Position numbers and translations under genes: made by a program. The notes beneath the pieces are model-generated. The model had not been told where the DNA came from, searched no databases, and saw only the letters and a program-made list of their open reading frames with translations. Positions 1-24,869 of a stretch of 27,191 nucleotides of DNA are shown here, piece after piece. The stretch comes from a virus (taxonomy: Duplodnaviria > Caudoviricetes), in IMG/VR virus record IMGVR_UViG_3300020215_000128, positions 1-27,191 of that record; one strand, 5' to 3'. Every line of letters starts with the position of its first letter. Positions within the stretch are counted from its first letter, which is position 1.

Positions 1-130
1 TATCCAGGAAGGCTCTGTTGGTTACGTGGGGTAAGAGGCTCTTCAAGGCCTCACGTAGCTCAGGGGTCTGTACCTTATCCTCTTTAGATAGAGGAATAAG
101 AGAGTCTAGGTATGAGAGGGAGTGCATAGA

Positions 131-526
131 ATGGACGCGATAGACGATGTTTCTGGGCGCGTGCCAGGGGCACCGGGCTCTCGTCCTTCGGACCAAGCCC
201 CTGCGGGTCTTGGCGGTTCCCGCTTCGATCCCTCGCGCTTCGAGCCTGAACGTTACGATGGCAAGCCTCGATGGCTTCCCAAGAACGAGCGCAGGCTACT
301 TCGCGTTTTGCTCGACGTCGTTGAAGAACGGATGGCGCTCATGAGCGACCGGGAGCAAACAGAGCTGCTATGTGGTTGCCTCAACGTGTCGCCCGTCAAC
401 TGCGCATGGGACGAGTACGCGCTGGCGGGTATCATCTACCACTCGCTCAGCCATGATGTAGCGAACCGCGATAGGGATAGTCGCCGAATGGCCGAGACCG
501 AAGGGCTCGGGGCGAAGCCCGACTAG
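131..526 (+). CDS. Hypothetical protein whose two ends are encoded by the inverted structured elements
   Basis: ORF with ATG at 131 (alternative GTG at 122) preceded by GAGAGGGAG. No recognisable domain. Reads through elements 154-237 and 467-550. Confidence 0.5.
   Translation: MDAIDDVSGRVPGAPGSRPSDQAPAGLGGSRFDPSRFEPERYDGKPRWLPKNERRLLRVLLDVVEERMALMSDREQTELLCGCLNVSPVNCAWDEYALAGIIYHSLSHDVANRDRDSRRMAETEGLGAKPD
154..237 (-). repeat. 84-nt multi-hairpin element, left (inverted) copy
   Basis: Reverse complement reads CGCGA-GGGAT..CGG(GAA)CCG-CCAAG-A-CCC(GCA)GGG-G-CTTGG-TCC(GAA)GGA..AGCCCGG-TGCC(CCT)GGCA..CGCCCA. Same layout as 467-550. Confidence 0.75.
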
Positions 527-550
527 CCCGGTGGCGTAGCCAATCGCCCA
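467..550 (+). repeat. 84-nt multi-hairpin element, right copy
   Basis: Pairings GCGAT/ATCGC (468-472/543-547), TAGTCG/CGACTA (478-483/520-525), CCGAG/CTCGG (492-496/506-510), plus hairpins GGC-GAA-GCC and TGGC-GTA-GCCA. Confidence 0.75.
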
Positions 551-568
551 ACCTTTATCGGAGTCCCC

Positions 569-751
569 ATGCCCAAGAAGTACCACATAACCGGCACAGA
601 CACTTATGGAGACCTCCACACCTTTTCCACTGATGATGAATCAAGAGCAACAGCCATGCTTCATCAGATGAGAGAAGACCTGGAGAACGTATCCATGCGT
701 GAGGGCGATGAGATCGTCTGGATACCGAGGATGGAGATGAACCCGAAGTGA
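569..751 (+). CDS. Hypothetical protein, 60 aa
   Basis: GGAG RBS before the ATG. Stop overlaps the next start (GTGA). Confidence 0.6.
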   Translation: MPKKYHITGTDTYGDLHTFSTDDESRATAMLHQMREDLENVSMREGDEIVWIPRMEMNPK

Positions 752-1098
752 TCGCTGCCGCCCTGTTCCTATGTACAGTATCGGCCGTGACGGATGGCGA
801 CTCTCTGCGCTGCACTGACGGCACCCGCGTTCGCCTGCACGCGATCGATACGCCTGAAATGCCGGGAGCGTGCCGGCAAGGCCGTGTCTGCGCCCCAGGC
901 AATCCGCATCAAGCTAGGGCGGCCCTGGTGAAGCTCGCTGCTGGCAAGACGCTCAAATGCCAGAAGACCGGAACCAGCTGGGAGAGAGTAACCGCCTATT
1001 GCTCGGCCGATGGGAGGGATCTGAGCTGCGCCATGTACCGCGGTGGATATGCGGTAAGGCTGGAGCAGTTCGACCGTAATCGGCGGCTGTGTCGTTAG
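748..1098 (+). CDS. Thermonuclease (staphylococcal nuclease-like) family protein
   Basis: Motifs VTDGDSL, VRLHAIDTPE, DLSCAMYRGGYA. Short hydrophobic N-terminus, Cys-rich. Confidence 0.88.
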   Translation: MIAAALFLCTVSAVTDGDSLRCTDGTRVRLHAIDTPEMPGACRQGRVCAPGNPHQARAALVKLAAGKTLKCQKTGTSWERVTAYCSADGRDLSCAMYRGGYAVRLEQFDRNRRLCR

Positions 1099-5391: not shown

Positions 5392-5487
5392 ATGAAGGCA
5401 CTGAACTGGAAGTCCGCGCTCGCGATCATCGCCATAGTCGCGTTCATCATCTTCGGCATGATGTTGGACAATCCGCCGCCCTATTAG
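5392..5487 (+). CDS. Small single-TM peptide (31 aa; 39 aa if started at 5368)
   Basis: MKALNWKSALAIIAIVAFIIFGMMLDNPPPY occupies an otherwise empty gap. Its stop overlaps the convergent stop at 5484-5486. Confidence 0.5.
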   Translation: MKALNWKSALAIIAIVAFIIFGMMLDNPPPY

Positions 5488-7703
5488 GCGTAGGCACCTG
5501 CCGTGTCGTTCGAGGTAGTCCGGGCAGTACCTGCGAGATCGTGAGACAGGACCGCGGCCGAAACCATGCTCTTGGCCGGCGAACCGCTCTGCACCGTGTA
5601 TGTGCCGCCTCCAGCGCCAGCAACATAAGCAGAGCCGTTATGGGTCGTGTGAGCGGGTGTCGTGAACTTCGGATCAAAGTTCGTCGATCCGTCGCTGTAG
5701 CTCAGCTCACTGACGTTGTTGAACTTCGCACCAAGACCAGGATATTCCTGAGCCTCATTACCACCGAGAGCCGTCGCAGCGCGGAAGGGTGACAGTTCCC
5801 CCTGACAGCCGACGCCATACTCGTAAGGCCAGTTGCCCTGCCTCGCCCCGTTCAGCGCGAAAACGTCGCTCTTTGTGAAGACGCCGACGTGGATGTTGCC
5901 CTTGCACGACATGAGTTTCGAGGTCCGGGGCGTTGTGCCTTCGTCGTAGAAGATGTTGCCGCGTCCACAGAGCCCCCAGCCCGCGAAAGTGTTGTTGTGA
6001 AGAATGACGTGGCTGTTACTGCCGATCGCATTGTCCGAAGAGATGCGAATGGCTGGACCTGTTGCGGCCGAGGTCCATTCGAAGACGTTCTGGAGAACTG
6101 CCGCGCCATTCACGTCCACGAGCGTTCCTGTCGTGTCCGACCCAAGCTGGACCGGGCCGAGAGGCGAGGATGCCGCGCCAATCCTTCCGAAGCGGTTGAA
6201 GGCAATGATAGACCCAGTGAGAGTCCGTCCGCCCCGCGGAAGCTGGCTCGGCCTCTCGATCGAGCTGCCAACTATCAGCCAGCCTTCAACGGGACTGTGC
6301 GCGGCGAAGGTGATGTCCACCCCGCGGAAAATACGATGCTCGAAAGAGGCAGAGGCATTCAGGGTAGAGGCGCCCATGTTCGAACAGGTGGCGCCATACC
6401 AATAGCCATGCGCGTTCGTGAACATCGCCGCGTTTGACGTAGCGCCGTTGTCGTATGTGATATCGTCGAAGATGACCTCGAGTTGCGCTGGCGCTGCTTC
6501 GCCGACAATGCTGAGCGTCCCCGTCCTGATGACACCAACGTCATGGAATCGCAGCGCGCCATTCGTCAGGGGCGCGGTGATCGAGCCGCCGAGGCGAGGC
6601 CTGAACGCCGCAGCCCCGAAGGACACCCGGGCGTTTGCACGCGCAACGGTCGGATCGCGAGTGATCGTGATCGCGGCAACCTTCTGTGTCCGCGTGGCTG
6701 CCGTGGAGCCGAGGACGAACGGAGTCCCCCCGTCATCACCGATACGGATCTCGGCCATGTCGACGCCGGAAGTTGCCCCGAGGTCGGTATGCGCCTTGTT
6801 GATCGCCGCAAGAATGGTGGCGAAAGGCGTGCCCGAAGCAGTGGCAGCGTTCGTGCTGCCGGCACCAGTCCCGTCATTGCCACCGTTCGCGGCTGTCTTG
6901 ACGTAGTAGAGAGTTTTGGCACCCGTATTCTTGAGGAAGTAGCGAGGGCTGAACTCACGAGCGACCGAACTGTCCGCGCTGTCCAGAACCGATGCGGCTG
7001 CACCGATCCAGGGATAGACCTTGGCATTGCAGGTGATGAGGCCGGCAGTCAGCGTCGATACGTCTAGGGAGGCCTTGTAGCTGACGACGGCATTCCGATC
7101 CCCGGCGCGATTGGAAACGGCAGTAGCGGCGACGGTCTGCGTGACGGTATTCGTGCCATCGGTTGCGCGGAAAACGACGCAAGCCACCTGCTTGCCGGAC
7201 CTGGCGTTTCGATGGGCGGCAATGACCTCAAGTTCGATCGTATTACCTACCACCAGACGATGTGGCATGATCCAGTTGGCAACTGGCTTGGGGCTCGTTT
7301 CGGTGCTGTTGTTCGCCACCGTAAGGATCGTGTCGGTGGCGTAGACATAATCCGAGAGAGCGACGCGAGCGGCCGTAATGGTGGCCTGGTTCGGGTAGGC
7401 TTCCCGAACCCGCTGCGTGATCGTCAGCGTCTCTGAATATGTCGTCGCCGCGCCCGTCGCGTCAAACCCTTGTCGGCTGACCGTCTCAGACGTGAGGGGG
7501 TTGAGTGATGGAGGCGTACCGTCATGCTGCGCCGACCAGCCATCCGAATTAACCGACGAGAGCATGGTCGTCGGTGGAGGCGGTGGCGGGGGCGGTGGTG
7601 GCGGAGGGGGCGGTGGTGGAGGCGGAGGAGGTGGCGGCGGAGGTGCCGCGCCAATGCCACCGGCCATGAGCCTGCCCCAGTAGAAGAGACCGACGCCGAT
7701 CAT
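5484..7703 (-). CDS. Putative head fibre/depolymerase: short N-terminal anchor, 24-Pro linker, beta-helix body
   Basis: YYVKTAANGGNDG..GTPFATILAAIN motif, HVILHNNTF-type rungs, and a C-terminal DPKF..YTVQSGSPA..DLAGTAR..TAGAY (choice-of-anchor-Q-like). ATG 7703 lies in a TGATG overlap. Confidence 0.7.
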   Translation of the reverse strand: MIGVGLFYWGRLMAGGIGAAPPPPPPPPPPPPPPPPPPPPPPPPTTMLSSVNSDGWSAQHDGTPPSLNPLTSETVSRQGFDATGAATTYSETLTITQRVREAYPNQATITAARVALSDYVYATDTILTVANNSTETSPKPVANWIMPHRLVVGNTIELEVIAAHRNARSGKQVACVVFRATDGTNTVTQTVAATAVSNRAGDRNAVVSYKASLDVSTLTAGLITCNAKVYPWIGAAASVLDSADSSVAREFSPRYFLKNTGAKTLYYVKTAANGGNDGTGAGSTNAATASGTPFATILAAINKAHTDLGATSGVDMAEIRIGDDGGTPFVLGSTAATRTQKVAAITITRDPTVARANARVSFGAAAFRPRLGGSITAPLTNGALRFHDVGVIRTGTLSIVGEAAPAQLEVIFDDITYDNGATSNAAMFTNAHGYWYGATCSNMGASTLNASASFEHRIFRGVDITFAAHSPVEGWLIVGSSIERPSQLPRGGRTLTGSIIAFNRFGRIGAASSPLGPVQLGSDTTGTLVDVNGAAVLQNVFEWTSAATGPAIRISSDNAIGSNSHVILHNNTFAGWGLCGRGNIFYDEGTTPRTSKLMSCKGNIHVGVFTKSDVFALNGARQGNWPYEYGVGCQGELSPFRAATALGGNEAQEYPGLGAKFNNVSELSYSDGSTNFDPKFTTPAHTTHNGSAYVAGAGGGTYTVQSGSPAKSMVSAAVLSHDLAGTARTTSNDTAGAYA
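7572..7643 (-). repeat. 24 consecutive proline codons
   Basis: (CCN)24 using all four Pro codons, counted from the sequence. Confidence 0.95.
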
Positions 7704-7741
7704 CAGCAAGCCACCATGTTTGAAGAGCAGGCGTCAGCCAT
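7703..7741 (-). other. 12-codon minigene MADACSSNMVAC (leader or gene remnant)
   Basis: GAAAGGT RBS 7 nt before ATG 7741. Its TGA overlaps the ATG of the 739-aa gene. Confidence 0.5.
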
Positions 7742-8104: not shown

Positions 8105-9358
8105 TTAGCTGCCCTTCCTTAAGCCGAAGATCCGGAACCGCGACCCAGCCGTGAAATCGATAGCGCTGCCTGCGAAGATGCGAAACGAGCTGAGCGCTCC
8201 AGCTGTTGAGCAATTAGCTGACCACAACCCAATTGAGTCGTGGGCCATGTCATGACGGCCTTTGAGGCGAGGACCGCTCATTCCCCCGCCCGTTCCCCGC
8301 GCATTCTCAATCATGATGATACCGGACACACTGGCGCCAGCAGCAAACAGCGGCCTCACTGACGCGAAAGAGCTCGCGGTGCCGGCGATCGCGGTCGGTG
8401 TAGCACCCGCGTTGGTGTACATGTGGCCGACATTATAGCTGTTGGTGGTGATGACCGTCCCACCGATGCCAAGCCTGAAAGCCAGTTCCTGCTGCGTGCC
8501 TCCGTTGGTCAGCGCATATTCGATCATGTAAGCTTCGAATTGCGTGTCGCTGAAGGGCACGGTGAAGTCGAAGGCGCTTGCGGTTGAGCCTGCGACAAAG
8601 TCCCAGCAAAGTGCCTCCCTGCTCTTTTCAACGAGCCATCCTGTTCCGGCAGCATTGCGCCGCAGCGTCACGTTCTCCCCGTAGATGATGAGGTTAGCTG
8701 CGGTTCCGTCGATGGTGTCCGAGCCGTTCCGCGTCAAAGTGACATAGCGGATCGTGCTCTGGTCGAAGGCGCGGTTGATGATCTTGATTGAGAATTCGGC
8801 ATTCACCGAGCTTGCAGCTGGAAGCGTGGCGGTGATTGGCGCCGCCATTGTCGTGACATCGTACATCTTGCCGGCATCGGCAGACGCAATTGTGAAGCTC
8901 GTTGCCTGGGCAACAACGGTATAGCCGGAAGCATTCAGCAGGGCTCTCTGCGCTGGTGCGTCAGCTGCCTCGATTAGAGCGAGGCCGGCAGCAGTGAGGC
9001 CGTCCAGGGTTTGGTTGTTGATCTTGATGCCGTCTGAAAAGGTCTTCAACCCTCCCACCGTCTCCGCACCCGTCTTGTGGACGAGATTGGCATCGTTGAC
9101 CGACGATGCTGCGGCTACTGCCTGGTCACGGGCGGCCTCAGCTGCGTCCTCAGCAGCCTGGGCGGCAGCCGCGTTCGATGCTGCAGCTGCGACCGCGATT
9201 GCGGTAAACTCCGAGACAAGCGCAGGGGCGAAGACATTCAATTGGTTAGAAAACGTGGTGACGGCATCCACCCAAGTGTCTGCATTCAGGACGAACTCTC
9301 CCGGCTCCTGTCCCCGCTGAGGCGGCGTCGGTAGCGGCGTCACGGTAGGTAGGGGCAT
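8105..9358 (-). CDS. Tail fibre / receptor-binding protein
   Basis: Pro-rich N-terminus, Ala-rich coiled coil, fibre motif LVHKTGAETVGGLKTFSDG, ITATLPAAS motif, beta-rich C-terminal head. Confidence 0.8.
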   Translation of the reverse strand: MPLPTVTPLPTPPQRGQEPGEFVLNADTWVDAVTTFSNQLNVFAPALVSEFTAIAVAAAASNAAAAQAAEDAAEAARDQAVAAASSVNDANLVHKTGAETVGGLKTFSDGIKINNQTLDGLTAAGLALIEAADAPAQRALLNASGYTVVAQATSFTIASADAGKMYDVTTMAAPITATLPAASSVNAEFSIKIINRAFDQSTIRYVTLTRNGSDTIDGTAANLIIYGENVTLRRNAAGTGWLVEKSREALCWDFVAGSTASAFDFTVPFSDTQFEAYMIEYALTNGGTQQELAFRLGIGGTVITTNSYNVGHMYTNAGATPTAIAGTASSFASVRPLFAAGASVSGIIMIENARGTGGGMSGPRLKGRHDMAHDSIGLWSANCSTAGALSSFRIFAGSAIDFTAGSRFRIFGLRKGS

Positions 9359-10401
9359 CAGGTAAGTCCCTCGATCTCGAGCAGGCAGATTGATTGGGTC
9401 GGATATTCAAAGGTCACGCTGAAGTTGCGGTAGAAGCCGAAGATCGTGGCGGCTGAATACTGACTGGCAGCGATCCAGACGGTTGGCGTGGCGCGCAGCT
9501 GCGAAAGGATGGACGTGACTGAGTCGACGGCCGAGTTTTCCACCACCACCCGCGCATCAAGCCGCTTTGCGAAAGCGCGCTCCACAAGCTGCGCGTTGCC
9601 GAAGTCGTCAGTCTCTTTGCGGCTGAAATCGATGATGCCGGCACCCATGCCAGCGAGCGTCATGCCCAGGTCCTTGGTCTGCCCGACAACCAAGACTCCG
9701 GTGCGAACTGTGCCGCCAGGACGGGAGATCGTTACCGTGATCGCCATGTTCGAGTAGTTCGGCATATCGGCGACCACGAGGTCTGGCTTGCGAACGATTT
9801 CCTCGAAAAAGTAGTCGTACCAGTCGGCGATCCCGGTGGAGGACGACATCGTGAAGCTCTGGTTGTAGACTTCCGTGGCGCCGATCGAAGCGACAACATC
9901 AACCGTCTCTGCTTCGATGTTGAGCAAAGCCAAGCCATTCACACGACCCGGAATAAGCAGCTGGACCTGGATCACCTCTTCGGCAGTCGTCTGGCTGCTG
10001 TTGCTCTGGTCGAACATGCGCCAACGGTTCGTCGGGCCAAGATCCAGCCACCACGTGGGGTCCGTCAGTGCATGATTGAGATTGCTCGCCTGTACACTCT
10101 CGTATGCCCGATGGGCCACGGGATCGATTACAATGGCACCCTGAGCGTAAGTGGTGACCGTTGAATAAGTGGAATAGGTTGTGCCGACTTCCGCCCACCA
10201 TGTTGGAGAAGAAGCTGGCGTGTGCCCGGTGTTCGAAGCCTGGAGGCTTTCGTAGACTGTCGCCACAGTGCCGCTGAAGACCGACACCCGAGCGCCCAAG
10301 GCGTAGGTCGTTCCCCCTGCGTAGGCAGCAGGAGCCGTCTCCGGGACGGTGCTGGCGGTCAGGGCGGCGTCGTTGATTGTCGCCGGCCGAATAATCCTCA
10401 T
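9358..10401 (-). CDS. Tail-tip (distal tail-like) protein with two small carbohydrate-binding-like modules
   Basis: Directly follows the tape measure. Duplicated Y..TTYA.G..V..YES.QASN..H....PTWW..G module. Dit-like C-terminal half. Confidence 0.7.
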   Translation of the reverse strand: MRIIRPATINDAALTASTVPETAPAAYAGGTTYALGARVSVFSGTVATVYESLQASNTGHTPASSPTWWAEVGTTYSTYSTVTTYAQGAIVIDPVAHRAYESVQASNLNHALTDPTWWLDLGPTNRWRMFDQSNSSQTTAEEVIQVQLLIPGRVNGLALLNIEAETVDVVASIGATEVYNQSFTMSSSTGIADWYDYFFEEIVRKPDLVVADMPNYSNMAITVTISRPGGTVRTGVLVVGQTKDLGMTLAGMGAGIIDFSRKETDDFGNAQLVERAFAKRLDARVVVENSAVDSVTSILSQLRATPTVWIAASQYSAATIFGFYRNFSVTFEYPTQSICLLEIEGLT

Positions 10402-13400
10402 TACGGCCAGACTTCGCGAGTGGCGATCACGTCACCGTCGAGGGTTCTGACGGGCAACGCATCGCCCTCAATCCGATCAATCCAGCGAACCACCTTGCCC
10501 AGCATCTCGGCGATTGAGGCGGCGTGAACTCGAGCGTCCGAACCGATATTCGAAAGCTGACTGACGACAGCCGTGTTATCCACCTGCACCGATTGGCTAT
10601 TGGCCATGAAAGCCGTCGAAGGAACCTGCGTGACCTGCGGTTGGACGATCCCACTGGAAGCCATTTCAGCCTCAAGCGCATCGATCGCATCGCGGACGGA
10701 AAGTACGCTCTGGTTAATTTCGATTAGGCCGGCGACTGACTGGTCCAGCGCGTCCAGCTGCGCCTGAGCATAGTCTACCGCCTCATCCGTGGAGCCGATA
10801 GCCTGGTCCACCGAGCGCATGACCCGAGCAACATCGCGCTGATAATCCTGAAGCGACCCCGCCTGGTTCTTGCTGGCAGTGAGAAAGTCCTGTGCAACGT
10901 TCTCCAGTTCGCCCAGAGCCTTCTCGTTGCCCATGCGAGCAAGTGAGCTTGTGTCGACGAAGCGGGCCTGTGCCTGGCGATAGATGTCGGCTGCACCGTC
11001 CGCCGTTGCCCCGAGCGTGCCGCGGAACTTGCGGAGGCTGTCCCCGAAGCCGCTGAACTTGTCGATGGTATCCTGAAGCGCCCCACTCTCGCGCTTGTAA
11101 GCGTCCGTCAGAACGTCTCTGGCCTTACCGACACGTTCGGCAGCCTCAGCAATGTCCTCCAAATGCCAGATGGACTGCTGGAGCGGTCTCAGACTTGCAT
11201 CCAGGGCAGCGAGCTCTTCCTGCCGACGCAAGGCCGTCGCCGCTGCTGCGTTGCCGCTTAGTTCGAGAAGGCGAACCTCCATTGACACACGGGCGCGGCG
11301 AAGATCCTCCGCGGCCCGTGCCCCGTCGTCGACTGAAGATGCGTAGTCCTGCTGAGCCTTAGCGGCATCCTGCGCTGCCCAGACATTCTGCTGCAGAGCA
11401 TGAAGGCTTGCATCCAATGCACTGAGCTCGGCAGCCCGCTCACGGGCAACCGCTTCGACTTCCTGTCCGGTTGCCCGCAGAAGCTCGATTTCCAAGATTG
11501 CTCGACGACGTGCAATCTCTTCCGCCCTTGCCGCCGCGTCAGCCTGAGCCTGTGCGAGAGCCGCATTGGCGACTGCTGCGTCCTGAGCGGCCCAGACTTG
11601 CTGTTGCAAGGCGTGGAGGCTGGCATCCATCGCCTCCAGTTCCATGCGACGGCGTGCGGTAAGGGCTTCAGTGGTGAGACCCTGAGCCTCCATCAGCTCA
11701 ATCTCTAGCGTGCGCCTTTGCTGAGCGAGGGCCAGGACAGCCGCAGCTGCTTCCTCCGCAACCTGCGCCGCTTGTGCCTCAGCCGCGGCGAGTGCTTCCT
11801 GTGCCGCCTTGTTGTCGAGAGCCGCCCAAATCTGTTGCTGAATAGGACGAAGGGAGGCGTCCAATGCGGCAAGCTCATCCTGGCGACGGGCAGCGAGGGC
11901 AGCCGTGCTGTTGCCCAGCGCTTCCATGAGCTGAATGTCGAGATCCCGACGTTGCCGGCTTAAGGCTTCCTGAGCCGCTGCCAGTTCCCGCTGTGCCTGT
12001 GCCGCATCCTGAGCCGCCCAGACTTGCGCCTGAAGGGCTCTCAGGGTCTCATCGAGCGCAGCAAGCTCATCAGCCCGCTTAGCATTCAAAGCGCCCTGTG
12101 CGTCGCCCTGTGCCTCCATCAGCTGGATTTCCAGCGAGCGGCGCTGCTTCTCGATTTGCGCCAGTTGCTCGGCAGTCTTGGCGGTGTTGCCCATTTCGCC
12201 GTTGAGCTTGGCCGTATATTCCACCGTCTTGGCGAAAGCTGGCGCCACGCTCATCAACGATGCGTACATGGACTGACCGGCTTCGGTGGACAGGTTGAGC
12301 CCGAGGACAAGGTTCTTGAACTCGTTTTTGGTATCCACACCCGACTGACCGAGCCGCGCCATCTCGGCACCGACGGCGGCGATAATCGGCGCCATCTGCT
12401 CGGCTTCGGAGAGGAAGTTTTCGCGGAAGAAGCTTGTCTGCTCTTGGAATGCGTCCAACCCACCAAACAAGTCGATGAGAGCCGCACGCGCACCGACCGA
12501 AGCCGTACCCACTGCGCCGAAGCTCATGCCGATGCTCTTCAGCGAAGAATCGATGGTCATGTACTCACGGGCCAAGCGGGCGAGCGTTTCGAACTGCCCT
12601 TCCCCGACCTTCTGGAACTCGGCCAGGCCAGCGACAGCAGCCGCTGCCATGTCGTCGCCGAGCTTGGAGAAGACCGCCGCAAGCTCCTTCTCGATCTCCT
12701 CGCCAGTCAGGTCCTTGAAGGAGATCTTGCCGATGTTGACGTTAAAGGCGTCCAGCATGGCTCCGGCGCCTTCGACACCAATGATGCCGGCTGCTTCGAC
12801 GATCGAAGTCCGCATGCTCCCCACGAGCAACGCAACTTGGCCGGTCAGGTCAGCGTCGGCCGCGCTCGTGCTCGTCTCGATACTCGTCTTGGTGGACTTA
12901 CCTAGACCGAGGAAGCCGCTCTTCTTCGAGGTCTTCAGAACCTGCTGGTAGAGGTCGGCAGTGATCCCATTGGCGATGATGGTGCCCACGGTGCCGGGAT
13001 CGAACTCAATGCCCTGGTCGTGGAGCTCGCGGGTGATCGTCTTCTTACCGAAGAGCGCGCCGATGAGAGCGCCGACAACCGGGACGCCACCAAGGAGCCC
13101 ACCCTTCGTAACCGTGCCGAGGTTCAGACTGGAAGCGTCCAACCCACCGCCGACGCCAAGCTGACGGGCAATGAGAGACGCGAGGTTGCCGATGCTGCTC
13201 TCTATGGCACGCAGCGAGCGAACCATCTGGTTGGAATATTCCAGGTCGCGGTTCGTGTTCTTGAGCATCAGGGCAAGCGAGTTCTCGATGCTGTTTGACT
13301 TGGCCTTGGTGTCGCCGAGGACAGAGCCGGTGCCCTGCCGCTCCTGAAGCTCTTCCGCCGTGGGAATGGACGGGCCTTTGCTGCCACCGCCCAAGCCCTT

Positions 13401-15764
13401 GAGGCCCATGCTCGCGAGCAGAGCAACCATTGCGGCAACAACCGGGAAGGCGAACGGCCCGAGGAAGGAGAACATTTTGGCCGCGCCGGCAGCTGCGTCT
13501 GCGCTTCCGCGGACACCTGCGTTCGCCACGCTCTTGGCCGTCATGCCCAGGTCGACCGCAATTGCCTTTATCATGTTGGCGATGCGAATGGCCGCGAGAA
13601 CCTTCTCGAGCGCGACCATCGCTTTGTAGCCGGTGCTGTTCTCCTTGAAGAGCCCCTTCGCCGCGCCAATCGCGTCGCCGTAGAAGCGCTCCTCAGCGAT
13701 CGTCCTTTCACGGGCAGACCAGATTGCTATGCGGGCGAGTTCTTCCTGATTGCTGCCAGCGGCCCTGGTCCGACGCTCCTCTTCGAGCGCAATCTGCTCC
13801 TGCTTGACCCCGTATTCGCTGAAGGTGACGAGGAGATCCCCAAGGGCAGCACCTGCACGACCGAACGCAGACTCCAGAACGTCCGCCATGATGTTGGCGC
13901 GCTCGTCGATCTGCTCCATCAGCCCTAGTTGAGCTTCGAGTGAGGCGTTGAATGCGTCTGCGGCCTCGCGGTTGTCCTCCTGGGCATTGGCGAGGTCGAT
14001 TTCCGACTTGATGAATGCAGCCCGCTCGTTCGGGTCTAGCCCAGGTCGCGACTTGAGCTTCTGCTCGGCAGCAAGTTGGGCGAGCCTGACTGCCCGTTCC
14101 CGGTTGCCAACGCCGAGAAGCTGCGTTTCTAGCTTGAGCTGATCAATCTGCTGCTTGTTCTTCTCGATATCAGATTGGGTCGCCAGCTGATTGGCAGAGC
14201 CGCGGTCGGCAACCCTTGCCTGCTTCATCAGGCCAATAATGCGCTCCAGCTCGACGGCTAGATCAGTGTACCCCCTGGCTTGGGCAGCAGCGAGCGCGGT
14301 GGCGATTGGCCTAAGCGCCATCTCGTCCTGAATGGCAGCGTTCGCCTCTTCGACTGTCATGGTGCCAGCAGCCACAGCGGTGTTCGCGAGTTCACGCGCC
14401 CGCGTGCTAGCCTGAAGGTCCGCTATCTGTTTGGCCGCGTCTTCGCCACGCTGGACGATATTCTTCCGGAGTTCCTGCGCGGCAGCCGCCTCTATGTCGG
14501 CGCCCCGCTTCATGGAGTTCGCGACTGAGTTTGCACGAGCCTCGGCAATCATTCCGGCCGCATCGCTCTCCAAGTAAGCGGCTGCCACTCGGCTTATTCC
14601 GCCAATCGTTGCTTCCGCAGCGGAGGACTCCAGAGCCAAGCGAGCCTCTATGCGTGCCGCAGCCTTGGCCTCCTGAGCCGCCCTGCGTTCTGCCGCCTTG
14701 GCTTCAGCGCGAGCTTTGGCCTCAGCCTTCTTGTCGGCAGCACGAGCAGCAGCTTCGGCGCGGCTTTGCGCCTTCTCGGCCTCTTTAACGGCTTCAACTT
14801 CGCGATCGCGGATGCCGGTGAGCTTCTGAAGCTCCCGCTGATAGCTGACGGCGTTCAACCGCCCTTCGCTGAAGCGGTTGGTAAGACCGGCCTCAGCTTT
14901 GTCGTAACGCAAGGTCGCCGCAGCAGCCTCGTCTGTTGCCGCAGTAACCTCACGCCTGATGAGCGGGATCTGGCGTTGGCGGATTGTCTTATCGGCCTCG
15001 CCAATCGCAGTATTCAGACGCTTGATGGCCATTTCGTGGAGACCGGTGCGAAGTGCTAGGGCGCCGCCAGCACCCGTCGCTCCCGGATCGCCGGGGCTTT
15101 GTGCAGCGTGCGCCTGCTGAGCGGATTGTGCTGCCTCCAGGTTTGCCTTCGCAAGATTAAGCTTTCGCACCGTCTCAACACGTGCCGCTTCGGCGCTAGC
15201 GAGGTGCGCCCTTTCCATAGCGTAACTGCTCTGGATAGCCTTCTCTGAGGCCTTCAGGTTTTCGTGAATCGCCGCAGTCAGTTCCGACGTGGTCATCTTC
15301 TGATACTGAAGCGCCGTCGTCAGACCATCGGACGCGCTCTTGGCGTCCTTCTTCCTCGTGATCAGCATCCCAAGCACGGTGACTGCGCCCATCACAGTGG
15401 CGCCCCAAGGTCCGGATAGGAAACCGATGAACCCTTTAGCACCGCCCTGCATCAAAGACAGTGACTGGACCACCTGGCTGCCCTGCTGAGCAAAGATGAG
15501 CATGGCCGGCGTACCGGAGGCGAATTGGGTGGCCACGTCGCCGATCTGATAGGAGAGTTGCTGCATTCCTGCGCGCTGCTGCCCAGCACTGGCAGTCACG
15601 GCGGTTTGACCCCGCACGAAGCGGGAGCTTGCAGATGCGGCCCTTTCCAGATCGGTGGTGACAGATCCCATCGCGCCACCGACCGACTTTTTGACCTGAG
15701 CCATCTCACTTTGTAAGCGAGAAATATTCGTCAAAATTTCGATCTCGAGGCTGCCAGCTTTCAC
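10401..15764 (-). CDS. Tail length tape measure protein, 1787 aa
   Basis: Very long Ala-rich helical ORF. N-terminal MQQLSYQIGDVATQFASGT..IFAQQGSQ tape-measure motif. AAGGAGG RBS before GTG. Follows the tail chaperones. Confidence 0.93.
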   Translation of the reverse strand: MKAGSLEIEILTNISRLQSEMAQVKKSVGGAMGSVTTDLERAASASSRFVRGQTAVTASAGQQRAGMQQLSYQIGDVATQFASGTPAMLIFAQQGSQVVQSLSLMQGGAKGFIGFLSGPWGATVMGAVTVLGMLITRKKDAKSASDGLTTALQYQKMTTSELTAAIHENLKASEKAIQSSYAMERAHLASAEAARVETVRKLNLAKANLEAAQSAQQAHAAQSPGDPGATGAGGALALRTGLHEMAIKRLNTAIGEADKTIRQRQIPLIRREVTAATDEAAAATLRYDKAEAGLTNRFSEGRLNAVSYQRELQKLTGIRDREVEAVKEAEKAQSRAEAAARAADKKAEAKARAEAKAAERRAAQEAKAAARIEARLALESSAAEATIGGISRVAAAYLESDAAGMIAEARANSVANSMKRGADIEAAAAQELRKNIVQRGEDAAKQIADLQASTRARELANTAVAAGTMTVEEANAAIQDEMALRPIATALAAAQARGYTDLAVELERIIGLMKQARVADRGSANQLATQSDIEKNKQQIDQLKLETQLLGVGNRERAVRLAQLAAEQKLKSRPGLDPNERAAFIKSEIDLANAQEDNREAADAFNASLEAQLGLMEQIDERANIMADVLESAFGRAGAALGDLLVTFSEYGVKQEQIALEEERRTRAAGSNQEELARIAIWSARERTIAEERFYGDAIGAAKGLFKENSTGYKAMVALEKVLAAIRIANMIKAIAVDLGMTAKSVANAGVRGSADAAAGAAKMFSFLGPFAFPVVAAMVALLASMGLKGLGGGSKGPSIPTAEELQERQGTGSVLGDTKAKSNSIENSLALMLKNTNRDLEYSNQMVRSLRAIESSIGNLASLIARQLGVGGGLDASSLNLGTVTKGGLLGGVPVVGALIGALFGKKTITRELHDQGIEFDPGTVGTIIANGITADLYQQVLKTSKKSGFLGLGKSTKTSIETSTSAADADLTGQVALLVGSMRTSIVEAAGIIGVEGAGAMLDAFNVNIGKISFKDLTGEEIEKELAAVFSKLGDDMAAAAVAGLAEFQKVGEGQFETLARLAREYMTIDSSLKSIGMSFGAVGTASVGARAALIDLFGGLDAFQEQTSFFRENFLSEAEQMAPIIAAVGAEMARLGQSGVDTKNEFKNLVLGLNLSTEAGQSMYASLMSVAPAFAKTVEYTAKLNGEMGNTAKTAEQLAQIEKQRRSLEIQLMEAQGDAQGALNAKRADELAALDETLRALQAQVWAAQDAAQAQRELAAAQEALSRQRRDLDIQLMEALGNSTAALAARRQDELAALDASLRPIQQQIWAALDNKAAQEALAAAEAQAAQVAEEAAAAVLALAQQRRTLEIELMEAQGLTTEALTARRRMELEAMDASLHALQQQVWAAQDAAVANAALAQAQADAAARAEEIARRRAILEIELLRATGQEVEAVARERAAELSALDASLHALQQNVWAAQDAAKAQQDYASSVDDGARAAEDLRRARVSMEVRLLELSGNAAAATALRRQEELAALDASLRPLQQSIWHLEDIAEAAERVGKARDVLTDAYKRESGALQDTIDKFSGFGDSLRKFRGTLGATADGAADIYRQAQARFVDTSSLARMGNEKALGELENVAQDFLTASKNQAGSLQDYQRDVARVMRSVDQAIGSTDEAVDYAQAQLDALDQSVAGLIEINQSVLSVRDAIDALEAEMASSGIVQPQVTQVPSTAFMANSQSVQVDNTAVVSQLSNIGSDARVHAASIAEMLGKVVRWIDRIEGDALPVRTLDGDVIATREVWP

Positions 15765-15787
15765 AAGAGCCTCCTTCCTCGGGGCGC

Positions 15788-15811
15788 AAAAAAGGCGCCG
15801 GGAAGGCGCCT
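15788..15811 (-). terminator. Intrinsic terminator after the lipoprotein moron
   Basis: Minus strand AGGCGCC-TTCCC-GGCGCCT-TTTTT. Confidence 0.75.
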
Positions 15812-15838
15812 GATAGATCCAACACTTTGGCTAAGCGG

Positions 15839-16066
15839 CTAGGGGCAGCCTTCGGCCTTCTCGAGCTTCTTTCGGTCAACCCAGCGGATATCGACCTCGC
15901 CTGAGTCTACTTTGGAGCGACGAGATAGAAGCTCGACATTTCGGATAGCCGCTTCTGCTTGGTCGCCCTTCACTTTGTCGACTATGATCAAGCCATTGTC
16001 GTCGCACTCGTAAGACCCGCAGCCTGCGAGCAGGGCAAGGGCGAGAGCTGTTAACACCATCCGCAT
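15839..16066 (-). CDS. Small lipoprotein (moron; superinfection-exclusion candidate)
   Basis: MRMVLTALALALLAG-C lipobox. Inserted between chaperone and tape measure with its own promoter and terminator. Confidence 0.75.
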   Translation of the reverse strand: MRMVLTALALALLAGCGSYECDDNGLIIVDKVKGDQAEAAIRNVELLSRRSKVDSGEVDIRWVDRKKLEKAEGCP

Positions 16067-16072
16067 CGGCAC

Positions 16073-16101
16073 ATAATGCGACAGCGTCAGCCTCGCCTCA
16101 A
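16073..16101 (-). promoter_or_regulatory. Sigma70-like promoter for a leaderless transcript
   Basis: TTGAGG-N17-CATTAT-N6-ATG, with no SD upstream of the ATG. Confidence 0.55.
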
Positions 16102-16572
16102 CCCCTCTGTCTTAGGCCCCAGCGCAAACCCGCTGAAGGCGGCACGGATTTTATGTTCAACGGCTTCACGGTTGCTGTCCACAATGTGTGTCCATGGCGC
16201 TGGGCAATCTGGCTTTTTCGCGCGATCCTTCTCAGCAAGCCAGTCACCTGACAGGCTTCGAAGCAGTTTTGCTTCCCAGGGCTGAAGCCGGATGCCTGTG
16301 CATTCCTGCCATGCCTGGAGGGTGCGCCATCCGATCGGCGCACCTTCTGGGTCCGCAGGACCAAGATCCATGAGCCATTCGATGTAGGAAGTTGCAGGAA
16401 GGATCGGCATGGGAGGGACAATGCCGTCCTCCTGCATCTTCTCGAGCCTAGTGACGGGTTCTGCCACCTGCTCTGAGTTAAGCGATTGCTTTTTTTCGTC
16501 CCGCGGCGCAGTGTTGAGCCACGCCAACTGACGGACCCCCAGGCTCAGCTCGTCGCCGAGCCTTTCGTGAAA
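16087..16572 (-). CDS. Tail assembly chaperone T part (reached by -1 frameshift)
   Basis: Open -1 frame from the slippery site: FHERLGDELSLGVRQLAWLNTAPR..IGWRTLQAWQECTGIRLQPWEAKLLRSLS. Only a TTG start without clear RBS. Confidence 0.78.
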   Translation of the reverse strand, partial: FHERLGDELSLGVRQLAWLNTAPRDEKKQSLNSEQVAEPVTRLEKMQEDGIVPPMPILPATSYIEWLMDLGPADPEGAPIGWRTLQAWQECTGIRLQPWEAKLLRSLSGDWLAEKDRAKKPDCPAPWTHIVDSNREAVEHKIRAAFSGFALGPKTEGLRRG

Positions 16573-16973
16573 TTTTCCCAGTCGCCGATATGCTCTTGCA
16601 CTTGGTCAGCGATGAAGCCCAGCTGACGGTTGCTATAGACGGCCTTGAACATCTCCACGCCGGTCTTGCCGGGGTATTCGAGGTTGTTGAAGCCCTTGGT
16701 GATGGCCGCCAGATACTCGGCGCCCTCAGTGGCCATGTCGTCGGCAGAAAGTTCCATGTTGCCCTTTTTGCGGAGCCGCTGGATGTTGCGGCTCGAACGC
16801 TTGGCATTCGCCTGGGCATGCTCCTTCGAGCCGGGGCCGTAAAGCTCAACCTCCACAGGCTTGCTGGGGTCGTCCCTGCCCTCAGCATCCTTCTCAAAGA
16901 GAAGATTGCCGGCCGCATCCTTCAGGTGCAGCGTAGAGGTTTCAGAGACAGCGTACTTCGTAATATCAACCAT
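16545..16973 (-). CDS. Tail assembly chaperone G
   Basis: Lies between tail tube and tape measure. Ends FIADQV..IGDWENF at the slippery site. AAGGA RBS. Confidence 0.82.
   Translation of the reverse strand: MVDITKYAVSETSTLHLKDAAGNLLFEKDAEGRDDPSKPVEVELYGPGSKEHAQANAKRSSRNIQRLRKKGNMELSADDMATEGAEYLAAITKGFNNLEYPGKTGVEMFKAVYSNRQLGFIADQVQEHIGDWENFTKGSATS
16569..16575 (-). promoter_or_regulatory. -1 ribosomal frameshift heptamer A AAT TTC
   Basis: X XXY YYZ in the G frame near its 3' end. The -1 frame continues into the downstream ORF. Confidence 0.82.
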
Positions 16974-16986
16974 GAGGGTTTATCCT

Positions 16987-17048
16987 TCGTGCGCGGATGA
17001 AAGGTGTACCGACCCGCCGCGACCGCACGAGAAGCGACGGGCCGATAC
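16987..17048 (-). promoter_or_regulatory. Structured intergenic RNA, candidate H-type pseudoknot
   Basis: 15-bp stem 17034-17048/17006-17020 with three G-U pairs on the mRNA strand. Loop TCGTGCG is complementary to CGCACGA at 16987-16993. Confidence 0.6.
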
Positions 17049-17077
17049 TCGTTGACCAGCTAGGTGCCGGAAGTTTG

Positions 17078-17542
17078 TTAGGCGGCGAGCGATTCCACGA
17101 CGCCGACGCCAGCTGTGCCGGCGCTGGTGATCTCGAGCGTGACGGTGCCTGCGGTGATGGTGTCCACCCCGCCGACCCCGATCTTGAAGCTCATCACCTG
17201 AGCGGGGAAGAAATACTTGTCCCCGTTCTGAAGCGTGATCTGGAAGTAATAGTCGCTGTCGCTCAGGCTGGCGGTGCGAAGCAGGATCTGGCCTGCGTCA
17301 TCGGTGTCGAGGCCCAGGGCGAGAGTGATCGCACCCTCGTTGTAGGAACCCTTCCGCTTGACCGTGGAACGATTGGCCACCGGGTTATGAGTGACGAGCG
17401 CATATTCACGCCCAAACTCTCCGAGGTCGGTGACTTCGCCGATGTTGGTGAACGTCAACGCGGTATAGCCAGCCGAGTTGAAAGTGGCGGGCGCCGCCGA
17501 CGAGATGCCGATGGTCGTGCCCGCAGAGGTACGAACTGCCAT
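17078..17542 (-). CDS. Major tail (tube) protein
   Basis: FTNIGEVTDLGEFG..VKRKGSYNEG..DDAGQ..YFFPAQVMSF pattern, plus position. Confidence 0.88.
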   Translation of the reverse strand: MAVRTSAGTTIGISSAAPATFNSAGYTALTFTNIGEVTDLGEFGREYALVTHNPVANRSTVKRKGSYNEGAITLALGLDTDDAGQILLRTASLSDSDYYFQITLQNGDKYFFPAQVMSFKIGVGGVDTITAGTVTLEITSAGTAGVGVVESLAA

Positions 17543-20396: not shown

Positions 20397-21215
20397 TCAA
20401 CCGCCGCGGATAACGGTAGCAAGGTCGTAGAGGTCGACTGAGAGCTCAGACCCGTCCTCTTTGGTGAACTTGAGCTTGAGTTCTTCCGTGTCGATGTGGC
20501 CTTCGAGGATGCCGAGGCCGGGACCTCCTTCAAGGCCTTGGAGACCACGCTCGCCCCTTTCCCCCCGTTCTCCGCGCTTGCCCTTGCTGGCCGAAAGCAT
20601 CCATCCTTCGCCCGGAAGAGGTCCTGGGTTGTCGACCTTGGCGCGCCATTCGGAACCGTTGAAACTCACAACGTCGAGCGCGCGATAGTCAGCCTCGGGA
20701 TCGAATAGGCCTTTCGCCTCACCGGGATAGGCATCCTTGCCGTCAAGGCCCCGTTCGCCCGGCTCGCCCCGTTCTCCCGGAGGACCCTGTTCGCCGCGCT
20801 CGCCCTGAGCACCAGGTTCTCCCTGTTCTCCGCGGGCTCCTGACAGCCCCTGTTCGCCTTGCTCGCCCTTTTCGCCAGCCGGGCCTGGTTCCCCACGCTC
20901 CCCTTGGGGTCCTGGCTCCCCGTCCTTCCCATCCAAGCCGCGCTCGCCTGGAATGCCTTGTTCTCCGCGCTCACCCGGAGGGCCTTGTTCCCCCTGCGGG
21001 CCAGGCTCTCCATCCTTTCCGTCTCTGCCGTCTTTTACGGACGCCAGGCGCTCCTCGATGCGGCGCATGAGAGATCCCATGGCTTCCCGCTGTTCCGCCA
21101 TGAAAGCGCGATGCTCGGCCTGCCTTAGTTGCTCGGACCTTTCTGCCTCTCGGTGTACGGTGGCGATCGCCTTAGCGACGGCGTCCGTAGCCGCGTCAGT
21201 GAAGGCTTTGAGCAT
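20397..21215 (-). CDS. Collagen-like protein
   Basis: Coiled-coil N-terminus, 33 Gly-X-Y triplets, a small aromatic beta module, then 8 more triplets. Start overlaps the portal end. Confidence 0.85.
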   Translation of the reverse strand: MLKAFTDAATDAVAKAIATVHREAERSEQLRQAEHRAFMAEQREAMGSLMRRIEERLASVKDGRDGKDGEPGPQGEQGPPGERGEQGIPGERGLDGKDGEPGPQGERGEPGPAGEKGEQGEQGLSGARGEQGEPGAQGERGEQGPPGERGEPGERGLDGKDAYPGEAKGLFDPEADYRALDVVSFNGSEWRAKVDNPGPLPGEGWMLSASKGKRGERGERGERGLQGLEGGPGLGILEGHIDTEELKLKFTKEDGSELSVDLYDLATVIRGG

Positions 21216-22587
21216 GTTTCGCGACGCCTGCGTCGATGGCTCTACTGAAGTCGACGAAAGCTCGCTCTGCATCTTCTTCCCCTTCTGGCGCAGCCGCTGA
21301 AGCGGGCGGGGCCACCGGCTCAGGAGGCTTCTCATTGAAACTCAACGGGACGAGCTGCATCTGAACGCGCGGTTCGCTGCCAGCACTTCCCCGAGTTGGC
21401 AGGCCCTCCTCTGCCGCAGCATCGTTCGGAGACAGGATTCCCCCCACCACGCCGGCCGCAAGGCCCTCCATGCGTTCCTTGAAGTTGCTACGCAGAAGGA
21501 TGGAGGTGTCGAGCTCGGTATATTCGGACTTGTAGGCAGACGCCTCGTCCGCAGTCGGAGAAAGCCCGAAAAGCTGGTCGAACGCGAGTTCGATATGATT
21601 AAGGCAAAAACCAAGGCCGGAAGCAATCCAGGACTGCATCAGGCTCTCAGTGGTCGAATAGGTGTTGTTGCCGATGCCCAGAACCTGAAGCGGCACCCGG
21701 TAGGCTAGGGCCACGTTCTGCTCAGTCATCTTCATGATCTCGGCGAACTGCGTATCCTTCGCCGTTGCCGTCATGGGGTTCCATTTGAGGCCGTGGGTCA
21801 GGATCGGTGTCCCGCCAGCATTCAAGCCTCGAGACTGCTCGTTCCAGCGTGCCCTCAGCGCTGCAACCTGCTCTTCCGACAAATGGCCATCGGTGTTGAG
21901 AGTGCCAGATGGCCGCGCTTGTCGGTCAAAGAACGAAATGGCCTGTCGTGCCATCGCATTGGAAGCTGCAAGATCCAGCATGGCAGCGGTCAGCGGAGTT
22001 TCGCCCTGCAACGGATGCCGCGGCGTCTCTAGCCTGACATGCAGCACTTCTCGGGCAGGCACACCGTTGAGAGCGTTAGCGCCAATCTGGCGTTCGATAA
22101 CTTCGTTGCCACTGAGAGAATAGAAAACGTCGCCAGTGACAGCGACCATCGCCTCGCCCTGGTTCATCAGGTGGAGCTCAGCGATCTCGAAGCGGTTGTT
22201 CCGGATCGCCAGCGCGTAAGCATTCCCTGTGCGGTAAAGCTTGCTCACCAGGTTCAGAGTGAAGTCGCTGGGTGTTTGATAGGCGTTCGGCTTGTGGAGA
22301 ACGCGGGATAGGGCCGAGTTCGTCACCCTTTCACGCCCACCGTCAGCCTTCACACGCCAATGAGATCCAGGACACATAGCCGTTGTTTGAGCGTATGCGG
22401 AGACGCAAGCTTGCACGATGGCTGAGCTTCCGCCTCCGTCTACGTCGTACCCCTGCTGCCAGAAGTTCCAGGCGCTTCCGGAAGGAAGCCAACCTCCGCT
22501 CGCAGGAAGGTAATAAGGCCCTTCCCGGTACTCGCCTTCATGGGACTTGATCCCCACAGCTGAGAGTACGCGGGACAGGAACCCCAT
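21196..22587 (-). CDS. Portal protein, HK97 family
   Basis: VQACVS, PNAYQT, GNAYA, EVLHVR, G.TPL, RPSG.L, VALAYRVP motifs. Confidence 0.95.
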   Translation of the reverse strand: MGFLSRVLSAVGIKSHEGEYREGPYYLPASGGWLPSGSAWNFWQQGYDVDGGGSSAIVQACVSAYAQTTAMCPGSHWRVKADGGRERVTNSALSRVLHKPNAYQTPSDFTLNLVSKLYRTGNAYALAIRNNRFEIAELHLMNQGEAMVAVTGDVFYSLSGNEVIERQIGANALNGVPAREVLHVRLETPRHPLQGETPLTAAMLDLAASNAMARQAISFFDRQARPSGTLNTDGHLSEEQVAALRARWNEQSRGLNAGGTPILTHGLKWNPMTATAKDTQFAEIMKMTEQNVALAYRVPLQVLGIGNNTYSTTESLMQSWIASGLGFCLNHIELAFDQLFGLSPTADEASAYKSEYTELDTSILLRSNFKERMEGLAAGVVGGILSPNDAAAEEGLPTRGSAGSEPRVQMQLVPLSFNEKPPEPVAPPASAAAPEGEEDAERAFVDFSRAIDAGVAKHAQSLH

Positions 22588-22596
22588 CGGTCGCGC

Positions 22597-22845
22597 TTAC
22601 GACTTCTTCGCGGTCGAAGCGCGGGTCTGGTAGGATGACGAGCCAGATGCAGAGGAGGATTTCTCTTCCTCGCCGCCGTCATCATCCTTGTTGTCCAGCT
22701 CGGACAGGCTGTCGACGCCAAGCTTCGCACGGTCATTCTCTTCCTGGCTCGGGGTAGGCCGGGCGTTCTCGGTGCGCGCAAGCTGCTCGGCGGTTTCAGC
22801 CGCGACGCGCTTTTGGCTGTCGGCCAGGGGATCGTTCTTCGCCAT
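22597..22845 (-). CDS. Small charged protein between capsid and portal
   Basis: GAAGGAG RBS before ATG 22845. Core RPTPSQEENDRAKLG. Confidence 0.7.
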   Translation of the reverse strand: MAKNDPLADSQKRVAAETAEQLARTENARPTPSQEENDRAKLGVDSLSELDNKDDDGGEEEKSSSASGSSSYQTRASTAKKS

Positions 22846-22871
22846 GACTGGCACTCCTTCTGATTGAGATG

Positions 22872-22899
22872 AAAAGAAGGGCGGCCAGAAGACCGCCCC
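22872..22899 (-). terminator. Intrinsic terminator after the capsid gene
   Basis: Minus strand GGGCGGTC-TTCT-GGCCGCCC-TTCTTTT. Confidence 0.7.
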
Positions 22900-22908
22900 T
22901 CCCCTGAT

Positions 22909-24852: not shown

Positions 24853-24869
24853 TTTGGGTCCCTTTCGGG

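Follow-up and report, generated by a model that had tools for sequence, protein, structure and literature searches.

The 27,191-nucleotide stretch of tailed-phage DNA analysed here (the window; IMG/VR record IMGVR_UViG_3300020215_000128) carries near its left end two inverted copies of a DNA element that belongs to a large and widespread family, absent from Rfam and common to tailed phages, inoviruses, conjugative plasmids and ICEs. Members of this family have a covarying fold and a strand bias, those of tailed phages are often arranged in pairs read in frame with the gene between them, and both the bracketed cores and the element bodies are exchanged, also at the window locus. As modelled from its relatives, the element is a structure of approximately 85-95 nt with six covarying helices and predicted DNA-type cGNAg loops. 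Its strand, position and neighbours favour a complementary-strand start signal, as far as sequence can tell. The reading that we prefer, at a probability of about 45%, is that the element is such a signal, read by the host, and that tailed phages use inverted pairs of it as sockets for gene exchange.

The window covers the structural arm of a temperate siphophage, with the terminase, capsid, portal, tail and lysis genes all on the minus strand. A longer contig that is identical to it (G001) supplied the left arm, and places the pair near the end of an early left operon encoding, in order, a repressor, PAPS reductase, ERF, HNH, exonuclease, NinB, excisionase, integrase and DNA methyltransferase, followed by small genes; three further element copies lie within this operon. 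The left copy of the window pair occupies 155..238 on the minus strand (model match 152-242, 90.7 bits) and the right copy 468..549 on the plus strand (464-552, 81.6 bits), both scores being those of copies that were themselves in the training set. Each has its 5' end toward the core (239..467, plus strand), which supplies about 75 codons to a small uncharacterized protein. The 131-aa cassette ORF (131..526, plus strand) begins with an ATG at 131, outside the left copy, whose antisense read supplies the N-terminal part of the protein, and continues through the core. The first-pass annotation had this ORF reading through both ends; it does traverse the left copy in full, but its stop codon (524-526) falls inside the right one. 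It is preceded by a purine-rich, probably ribosome-binding leader (114..128, plus strand), at the end of which (128) a second allele in run X1 diverges. The 3' end of an upstream 108-aa gene (3..143, plus strand; equivalent to L126:2858-3184 in the early left operon) overlaps the cassette start. The next small gene (569..751, plus strand, 60 aa) starts 19 nt after the right copy, and the last gene of the operon (748..1098, plus strand; phrog_18798, with weak nuclease matches) converges on the lysis genes. The core protein matched no Pfam or PHROG family, and a search of viral contigs for close relatives of the core and the next gene recovered G001 only; RQC-domain matches of the core in a protein atlas are a lead only. 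Other features of this phage include an unusual head gene order (window 21196-26570: terminase, a fused prohead protease-major capsid gene, portal and a collagen-like gene), a 741-aa ORF (5484-7709) that matches no PHROG and has a long stretch of prolines close to the N-terminus, and, in G001, an antisense element copy (L126:6126-6266) that opens the excisionase-like gene and is enlarged in one hairpin by about 48 inserted nt.

The inverted 84-nt pair first noticed at 154-237 and 467-550 is present as claimed, its members being 62% identical on the model alignment, and the four ordered hairpins with compensatory stem changes are as described. Comparison with relatives adds two helices, namely a basal stem (right copy, 468-472 with 543-547; left copy, on the minus strand, 238-234 with 161-157), in which two covarying pairs adjoin an invariant GCG/CGC part, and a further stem, in which an A.G mismatch is fixed. 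With these additions the predicted fold becomes a three-way plus a four-way junction, and not four loose hairpins. Two details required correction: the CGCGA listed among the shared anchors sits in a different register in the two copies, and the c-GNA-g type said to account for most loops is found in about five of the eight when they are read from the sequence. The most conserved block of the right copy falls at its three-way junction (525..532, plus strand), and the equivalent block of the left copy at 166..183 (minus strand). Folding energy is weak evidence for the structure (DNA z = -2.26 and -0.66 for the two copies). Among 53 seed sequences 91.9% of the cells pair and 15 of the 27 pairs change on both sides; none of 500 shuffles reached as high a value, and all slid controls were far lower. 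For 87 copies from cellular genomes outside the training set the figures are 92.3% and 18 of 27, in an alignment that was fitted to the model and thus leans toward it. Covariation is strong in both sets. cGNAg triloops are stable in DNA. A count over 315 distinct copies gives 549 of them for the element strand against 10 for its reverse complement, in agreement with the original suggestion of folded single-stranded DNA. In one alignment (A4) the middle G of the mismatch stem is kept by most upstream copies, whereas most downstream, C-terminal ones replace it by C and show the matching change opposite, so that there may be a left and a right subtype. Collapsed copies, reduced to the basal stem or missing the four-way junction, are seen in L445 (right cassette end) and L026 (944-1007); slippage across folded DNA would give such forms.

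The family was first recovered with a pattern of three blocks taken from the two window copies, which matched about 140 viral stretches in 120 loci. At 74 matches there is a full element that also has the upstream GGGAT-type block, absent from the search pattern; the pair is thus beyond chance. All 50 records behind the first matches contain the element, with 1-16 copies each. A pattern match in L443 was due to chance. A looser pattern returned about 1200 stretches, with a model match in 21 of 80 loci checked, and a third about 460 stretches in one-per-species genomes, mostly of Proteobacteria. At the gathering score Rfam 15 has no match in the window or in 14 relative loci, which agrees with the original proposal, and at E<=10 the one match was a chance snoRNA hit outside the element. 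A full-text literature search found no description of the element; its coverage stopped short of the original ssi and pKM101 papers, preprint supplements and motif catalogues that are not text-searchable. Two published candidates were set aside: the PBC-5 ssDNA motif is a different motif (PMC6429828, accessible part), and the IncN CUP sites are short ArdK-binding sites (PMC6289460, accessible part).

To characterize the paired arrangement we used 16 tailed-phage genomes picked for high copy number, so that the counts are not those of a random sample. Once one overlapping weak match is dropped, these genomes contain 137 copies, between 5 and 19 apiece. There are 57 cases of neighbouring copies spaced by 100-1000 nt, and in 36 of them the 5' ends point at each other as they do in the window pair; shuffling the strands gave a mean of 15.6 such neighbours and a maximum of 28 in 10,000 trials. 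A single frame is open across both copies in 20 of the 36 inward pairs (16 lack one), as against 1 of 21 neighbours of other types and 28.5% of random spans. The bracketed cores are unrelated to one another and include methyltransferase-like and many unknown genes. The predictions of inverted pairs around unrelated short cores, and of cores expressed from outside signals, the start and stop of the read-through ORFs lying outside, are thereby both borne out. Pair partners are at most 62% identical (median 54%, 36 pairs), barely more alike than copies from different genomes (51%), and therefore are not terminal repeats made by duplication. The cultured Sphingopyxis phage VSN-002 has four copies, including an inward pair inside gene_19. 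Element strands are both sense and antisense to the genes of tailed phages. Tail-to-tail doublets 45-89 nt apart account for 7 of 48 cases. Tandem cassette arrays, with tail-to-tail copies 49-88 nt apart, are seen in L245 (G017; 14102-17238) and L248 (G037; 8257-11007). In L024, L040 and L055 the translation-start region before the left copy is, by eye, loosely repeated after the right copy; these outer repeats resemble a long target duplication, of which there is none at the window pair.

Several lines of evidence show that cores and element bodies are exchanged, and the core is exchangeable as had been surmised. A second contig of run X1, possibly the source sample, matches the window at 98-127 and 527-567 with 554 other letters between; the last 30 of these, ahead of 527, correspond to the body of a different element variant, and the left junction falls outside the element. 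In runs X5 and X6, from other studies, a third variant is joined at 527 and followed by 114 and 54 matching letters, so that two different alternative bodies meet the window at 527 in three runs. In run X3 one contig departs from the window after 183 and passes into a different variant of the left copy. All these alleles are known from assembly pieces of low depth, whose source may be related phages instead of a single population. Relatives of the window core lie between other element variants and other flanks in L437/L438 and L442, and bare in L439; the bracketed forms join at the inner GCG of the element, at different codons than the bare form, and five database proteins combine the same core with element-derived ends of different kinds. 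Conversely, L437, L008 and L445 have a common leader and next gene around three unrelated bracketed cores. The L437-type slot is occupied by element-free genes in six other loci, and exchange at that slot thus does not need the element. In G037 one core occurs twice, 8.5 kb apart; the two versions are 82-86% identical, but their element bodies differ and their outer flanks are unrelated. An all-against-all BLAST of flanks found this duplicate, and few shared flanks among the phages compared. Empty or inverted alleles and excised circles, for which a check had been suggested, were absent from the assembled contigs examined, where rare forms would escape.

Junctions of this kind could mean that the element is a folded-ssDNA site, comparable to attC or REP, on which a site-specific recombinase or an HUH nuclease would act in trans, the pairs being true cassette ends. 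We think this somewhat improbable, though a serious rival. The joining of two alternative bodies at 527 and of bracketed cores at the inner GCG, at gene points that differ from those of the bare form, would be expected of it, as would the duplicated G037 core with its unrelated outer flanks, and the invariant basal triplets beside covarying pairs, together with two fixed A.G mismatches, resemble determinants of protein recognition. As established for integron cassettes, inverted sites invert rather than excise; such a site accordingly predicts inversion, and neither an inverted nor an empty allele was seen. Flank logos show nothing conserved past the terminal CC that could be a target, and the one fixed copy before inovirus rep is left unexplained. 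Nor do the 16 tailed phages share a recombinase, contrary to the expectation that one would co-occur: no ORF family is present in more than eight genomes, and the most shared ones (HNH/Ref-like protein, which is the most widely shared unknown ORF, NinB, ordinary integrases and methyltransferases) include no dedicated recombinase; one further shared cluster looks like an antisense frame. The integrases among the shared ORFs are of the ordinary phage type, not of the integron type, and their clusters span 7 and 5 of the 16 genomes; no HUH transposase is found among the families common to at least 5 of them, although a host might encode one. Recombination genes present are ERF, exonuclease, NinB and RusA in G001, ERF and YqaJ in VSN-002, and Rad52 in W01, with annealing proteins of the ERF or Rad52 type in all three.

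The occurrence of the element as a single copy in inoviruses and in same-strand copies in plasmids and ICEs indicates that it is not the phage-specific mobility end initially proposed. Inovirus contigs have one copy each, which lies on the strand of Rep or Zot in all 20 contigs with such a marker (26 loci examined; many of the 20 are close relatives) and 140-190 nt before the Rep_trans ORF in 12 of 12. The gene-sense strand of inoviruses we take, from Ff-phage biology, to be the virion strand. Element-bearing inoviruses encode different Rep families; as these differ and no ORF family exceeds 8 of the 16 tailed phages, the reader of the structure is probably a host protein. In Pf4-type prophages the element lies under the annotated gene PA0719 (e.g. 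AY324828, 3691-3777), and a model search of the Pf1 record NC_001331 and of Cf1c gave no copy. A PA0719 mutant with unaffected RF synthesis (PMC12328805, accessible part) had only the start codon changed and a marker inserted, and hence says little on the element. Two small contigs run against the strand rule: in L289 (1319-1418) and L293 (3515-3614) the single copy is opposite long ORFs, none of which is recognizable as encoding Rep or Zot.

Among 77 cellular loci searched, 12, of which two overlap, have more than one copy, and in each of these the copies share a strand; the same holds for five copies in W02, four in W03, two in F and three in R46. A scan of 130 neighbouring ORFs showed the element to be antisense to the leading-type neighbour in all 15 loci with such a gene (ArdC in 8, DUF3560 in 2, and DUF932, DUF736, DUF2958, RadC and ParB); counting against the strand rule is a TraI_2 C-terminal ORF in L351, on the element's own strand. 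The anti-restriction gene ArdC is the commonest identified neighbour, and the identified neighbours are largely mobile-element and defence-island genes. The element of plasmids is found antisense to leading genes and upstream of promoters, and since transcription of leading genes reportedly has the transferred strand as its template (bioRxiv 2023.02.15.528439, accessible part), it would lie on that strand. Judging by gene orientation, the folded strand would hence be the one that is single-stranded on entry in every marked inovirus (20/20) and leading-gene locus (15/15), and in F and R46. Cellular copies are GC-rich and often stop-free even where intergenic (46-76 of 91 per frame).

The neighbours of the element on plasmids include known single-strand signals. 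The two F copies, which are mismatched at the three-way junction, each follow an Frpo/ssiD stretch at a distance of about 90 nt on its 3' side. Their strand is antisense to the leading genes, and they occupy the flank where the converting polymerase approaches Frpo; the ssiD fragment as published stops roughly 90 nt short of either copy. ColIb-P9, with its three Frpo repeats, and R751 have no copy. In R46 the element lies beside a motif that is found in phiX174 at 2356. This motif, which was picked after the flanks had been seen and adjoins copies without lying inside them, precedes 10 of 84 cellular copies by 4-28 nt on the 5' side, where 0.12 would be expected, and follows none on the 3' side. 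Among inovirus copies 7 of 16 have it within 175 nt; its strand is always that of the element, and none of 138 tailed-phage copies has it alongside. Its position in phiX174 is in the F-G intergenic region, where the primosome assembly site also lies. The role of that site is described in PMC5778457 (accessible part). The model itself (R2, filters off) gives no match to phiX174, ColE1, G4 or M13. Leading-region spacers look like chains of ssDNA modules in varying combinations of Frpo, short hairpins, phiX174-like motif and element (L310:33477-34020 and 28089-28640; L121; L123; L454). Three candidate promoter windows in supplementary file 7 of PMC11541004 include the element wholly or partly, unnamed.

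These contexts suggest how a complementary-strand start signal might also serve gene exchange. The fold would act on strands that enter the cell single-stranded, i.e. the gene-sense strand of inoviruses and the plasmid strand antisense to the leading genes, and its neighbours (Frpo in F, the phiX174 F-G motif and the stretch upstream of inovirus rep) point to priming by host proteins. In a 5'-inward pair each strand would have a folded copy at its 3' end, and priming there would copy the enclosed gene from both sides, giving short pieces that end in element sequence. Annealing of ssDNA by phage proteins (ERF or Rad52 type, with an exonuclease) or template switching could then splice these pieces at the short invariant blocks, which would keep the ribosome-binding site, start and stop of the outside; the right-hand junction observed at 527 coincides with such a block. 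In a bolder version, which we hold to be rather doubtful, the element would constitute a third, so far unrecognised class of host-read single-strand origin (of inoviruses, F-type and IncN plasmids and ICEs) that temperate phages have adapted as an enzyme-free cassette system. A gene between inward-priming copies would then be a self-copying linear piece, able to plug in frame into other pairs, with the element itself translated as the ends of the protein.

Rather than a start, the fold might be a protective or timing device on incoming ssDNA, such as a roadblock, or a dock or decoy for a nuclease or sensor, with swapping as a by-product of homology. We consider this unlikely, though likewise a serious rival. 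The main evidence against a start signal comes from F: rifampicin abolishes early conversion behind both Frpo promoters, and late conversion is seen at a locus immediately 3' of the second copy (bioRxiv 2026.01.09.698686, accessible part). Primase-type priming by the F copies is thereby disfavoured, though these have the junction mismatches mentioned above, and a roadblock is compatible with the rifampicin result. A structural roadblock at another F promoter, ssp2, offers a precedent (same preprint, accessible part). The element lies on the polymerase's approach side to Frpo, and the frequency of ArdC next to it would suit protection. What this explanation leaves unaccounted for is the strong 5'-inward pairing and in-frame read-through in dsDNA phages, and a roadblock would presumably be costly on an inovirus genome. 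Still less likely is a selfish miniature repeat of the REPIN or MITE kind that inserts at gene ends and is functionless for its carrier. Up to 19 copies per phage and the tail-to-tail doublets would agree with such a repeat, and read-through of a GC-rich, often stop-free sequence is cheap; but the inovirus copy is single and fixed in strand and position, plasmids follow a strict same-strand rule, pair partners barely exceed the identity of unrelated copies, cellular neighbours are largely mobile-element and defence genes, and no transposase co-occurs. A structured RNA (riboswitch, ribozyme or mRNA element) is hardly credible, since, although covariation alone cannot tell RNA from DNA and the sense copy is presumably transcribed within cassette mRNAs, the 549 cGNAg triloops compare with 124 GNRA and two UNCG tetraloops in the same 315 copies, and the folded strand is sense in inoviruses, antisense upstream of promoters in plasmids and of both kinds in tailed phages.

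Among known single-strand initiation signals, Frpo/ssiD, the phiX174 PAS and the G4 and M13 origins share with the element a predicted ssDNA fold on the strand that enters the cell and repetition along plasmid leading regions, where the element adjoins Frpo in F and the phiX174-like motif. The element differs in forming inverted, protein-coding pairs in dsDNA phages; it lies outside the published ssiD fragment, is missing from ColIb-P9 despite its Frpo repeats, is not matched by the phiX174, G4, M13 and ColE1 sites, and its priming role is putative. IncQ RSF1010 has two hairpin sites of the priming type, ssiA and ssiB, close together on opposite strands. Element copies can be placed likewise, but form many pairs round cargo genes, with no cognate primase. 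Integron attC sites conserve structure over sequence, have an invariant basal triplet and a single promoterless gene as cargo, and are direct sites folding into one long hairpin. The element resembles them in the first three respects, but is mostly inverted and branched, has GCG/CGC as its basal triplet, is translated into the cargo protein, and is accompanied by neither integron integrase nor attI. REP/REPIN/BIME sequences with their RAYT, and IS200/IS605 ends, are ssDNA hairpins with fixed mismatches and inverted doublets. Both traits recur in the element, whose fold is much larger and branched and which is confined to mobile elements among the DNA examined; unlike MITE or IS ends, it lacks near-identical terminal inverted repeats. 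Rickettsia palindromic elements are structured repeats translated in frame within unrelated proteins. The present element is likewise translated as part of unrelated proteins, but at both gene ends, with a fixed polarity, in phages, and with a strand-specific life outside genes. Of known systems, it would appear to work most like the PeSLs of T4-type phages, structured repeats in hypervariable regions that mediate modular shuffling of small genes and are promoter-terminator units able to form mini-circles (PMC2839356, accessible part). As in PeSL cassettes, the genes between repeats are exchanged as modules; unlike PeSLs as described in that part of the source, the copies are inverted, lie inside the ORF, have a predicted six-helix DNA-type fold and occur also in inoviruses and plasmids.

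Taken together, a defined, covarying DNA structure of about 90 nt links three kinds of mobile element. It is present in the well-studied leading regions of F and R46 and in Pf4-type phages, for which the literature searched yielded no description of it, and it speaks to the question of how incoming ssDNA is primed or protected beyond a few E. coli models. For annotation it carries a warning, in that many small phage proteins have element-derived terminal peptides, and some called genes, such as PA0719, overlie the element. For temperate phages it would offer a concrete route to the mosaicism of small early genes, with marked sockets, mapped junctions and coexisting alleles.
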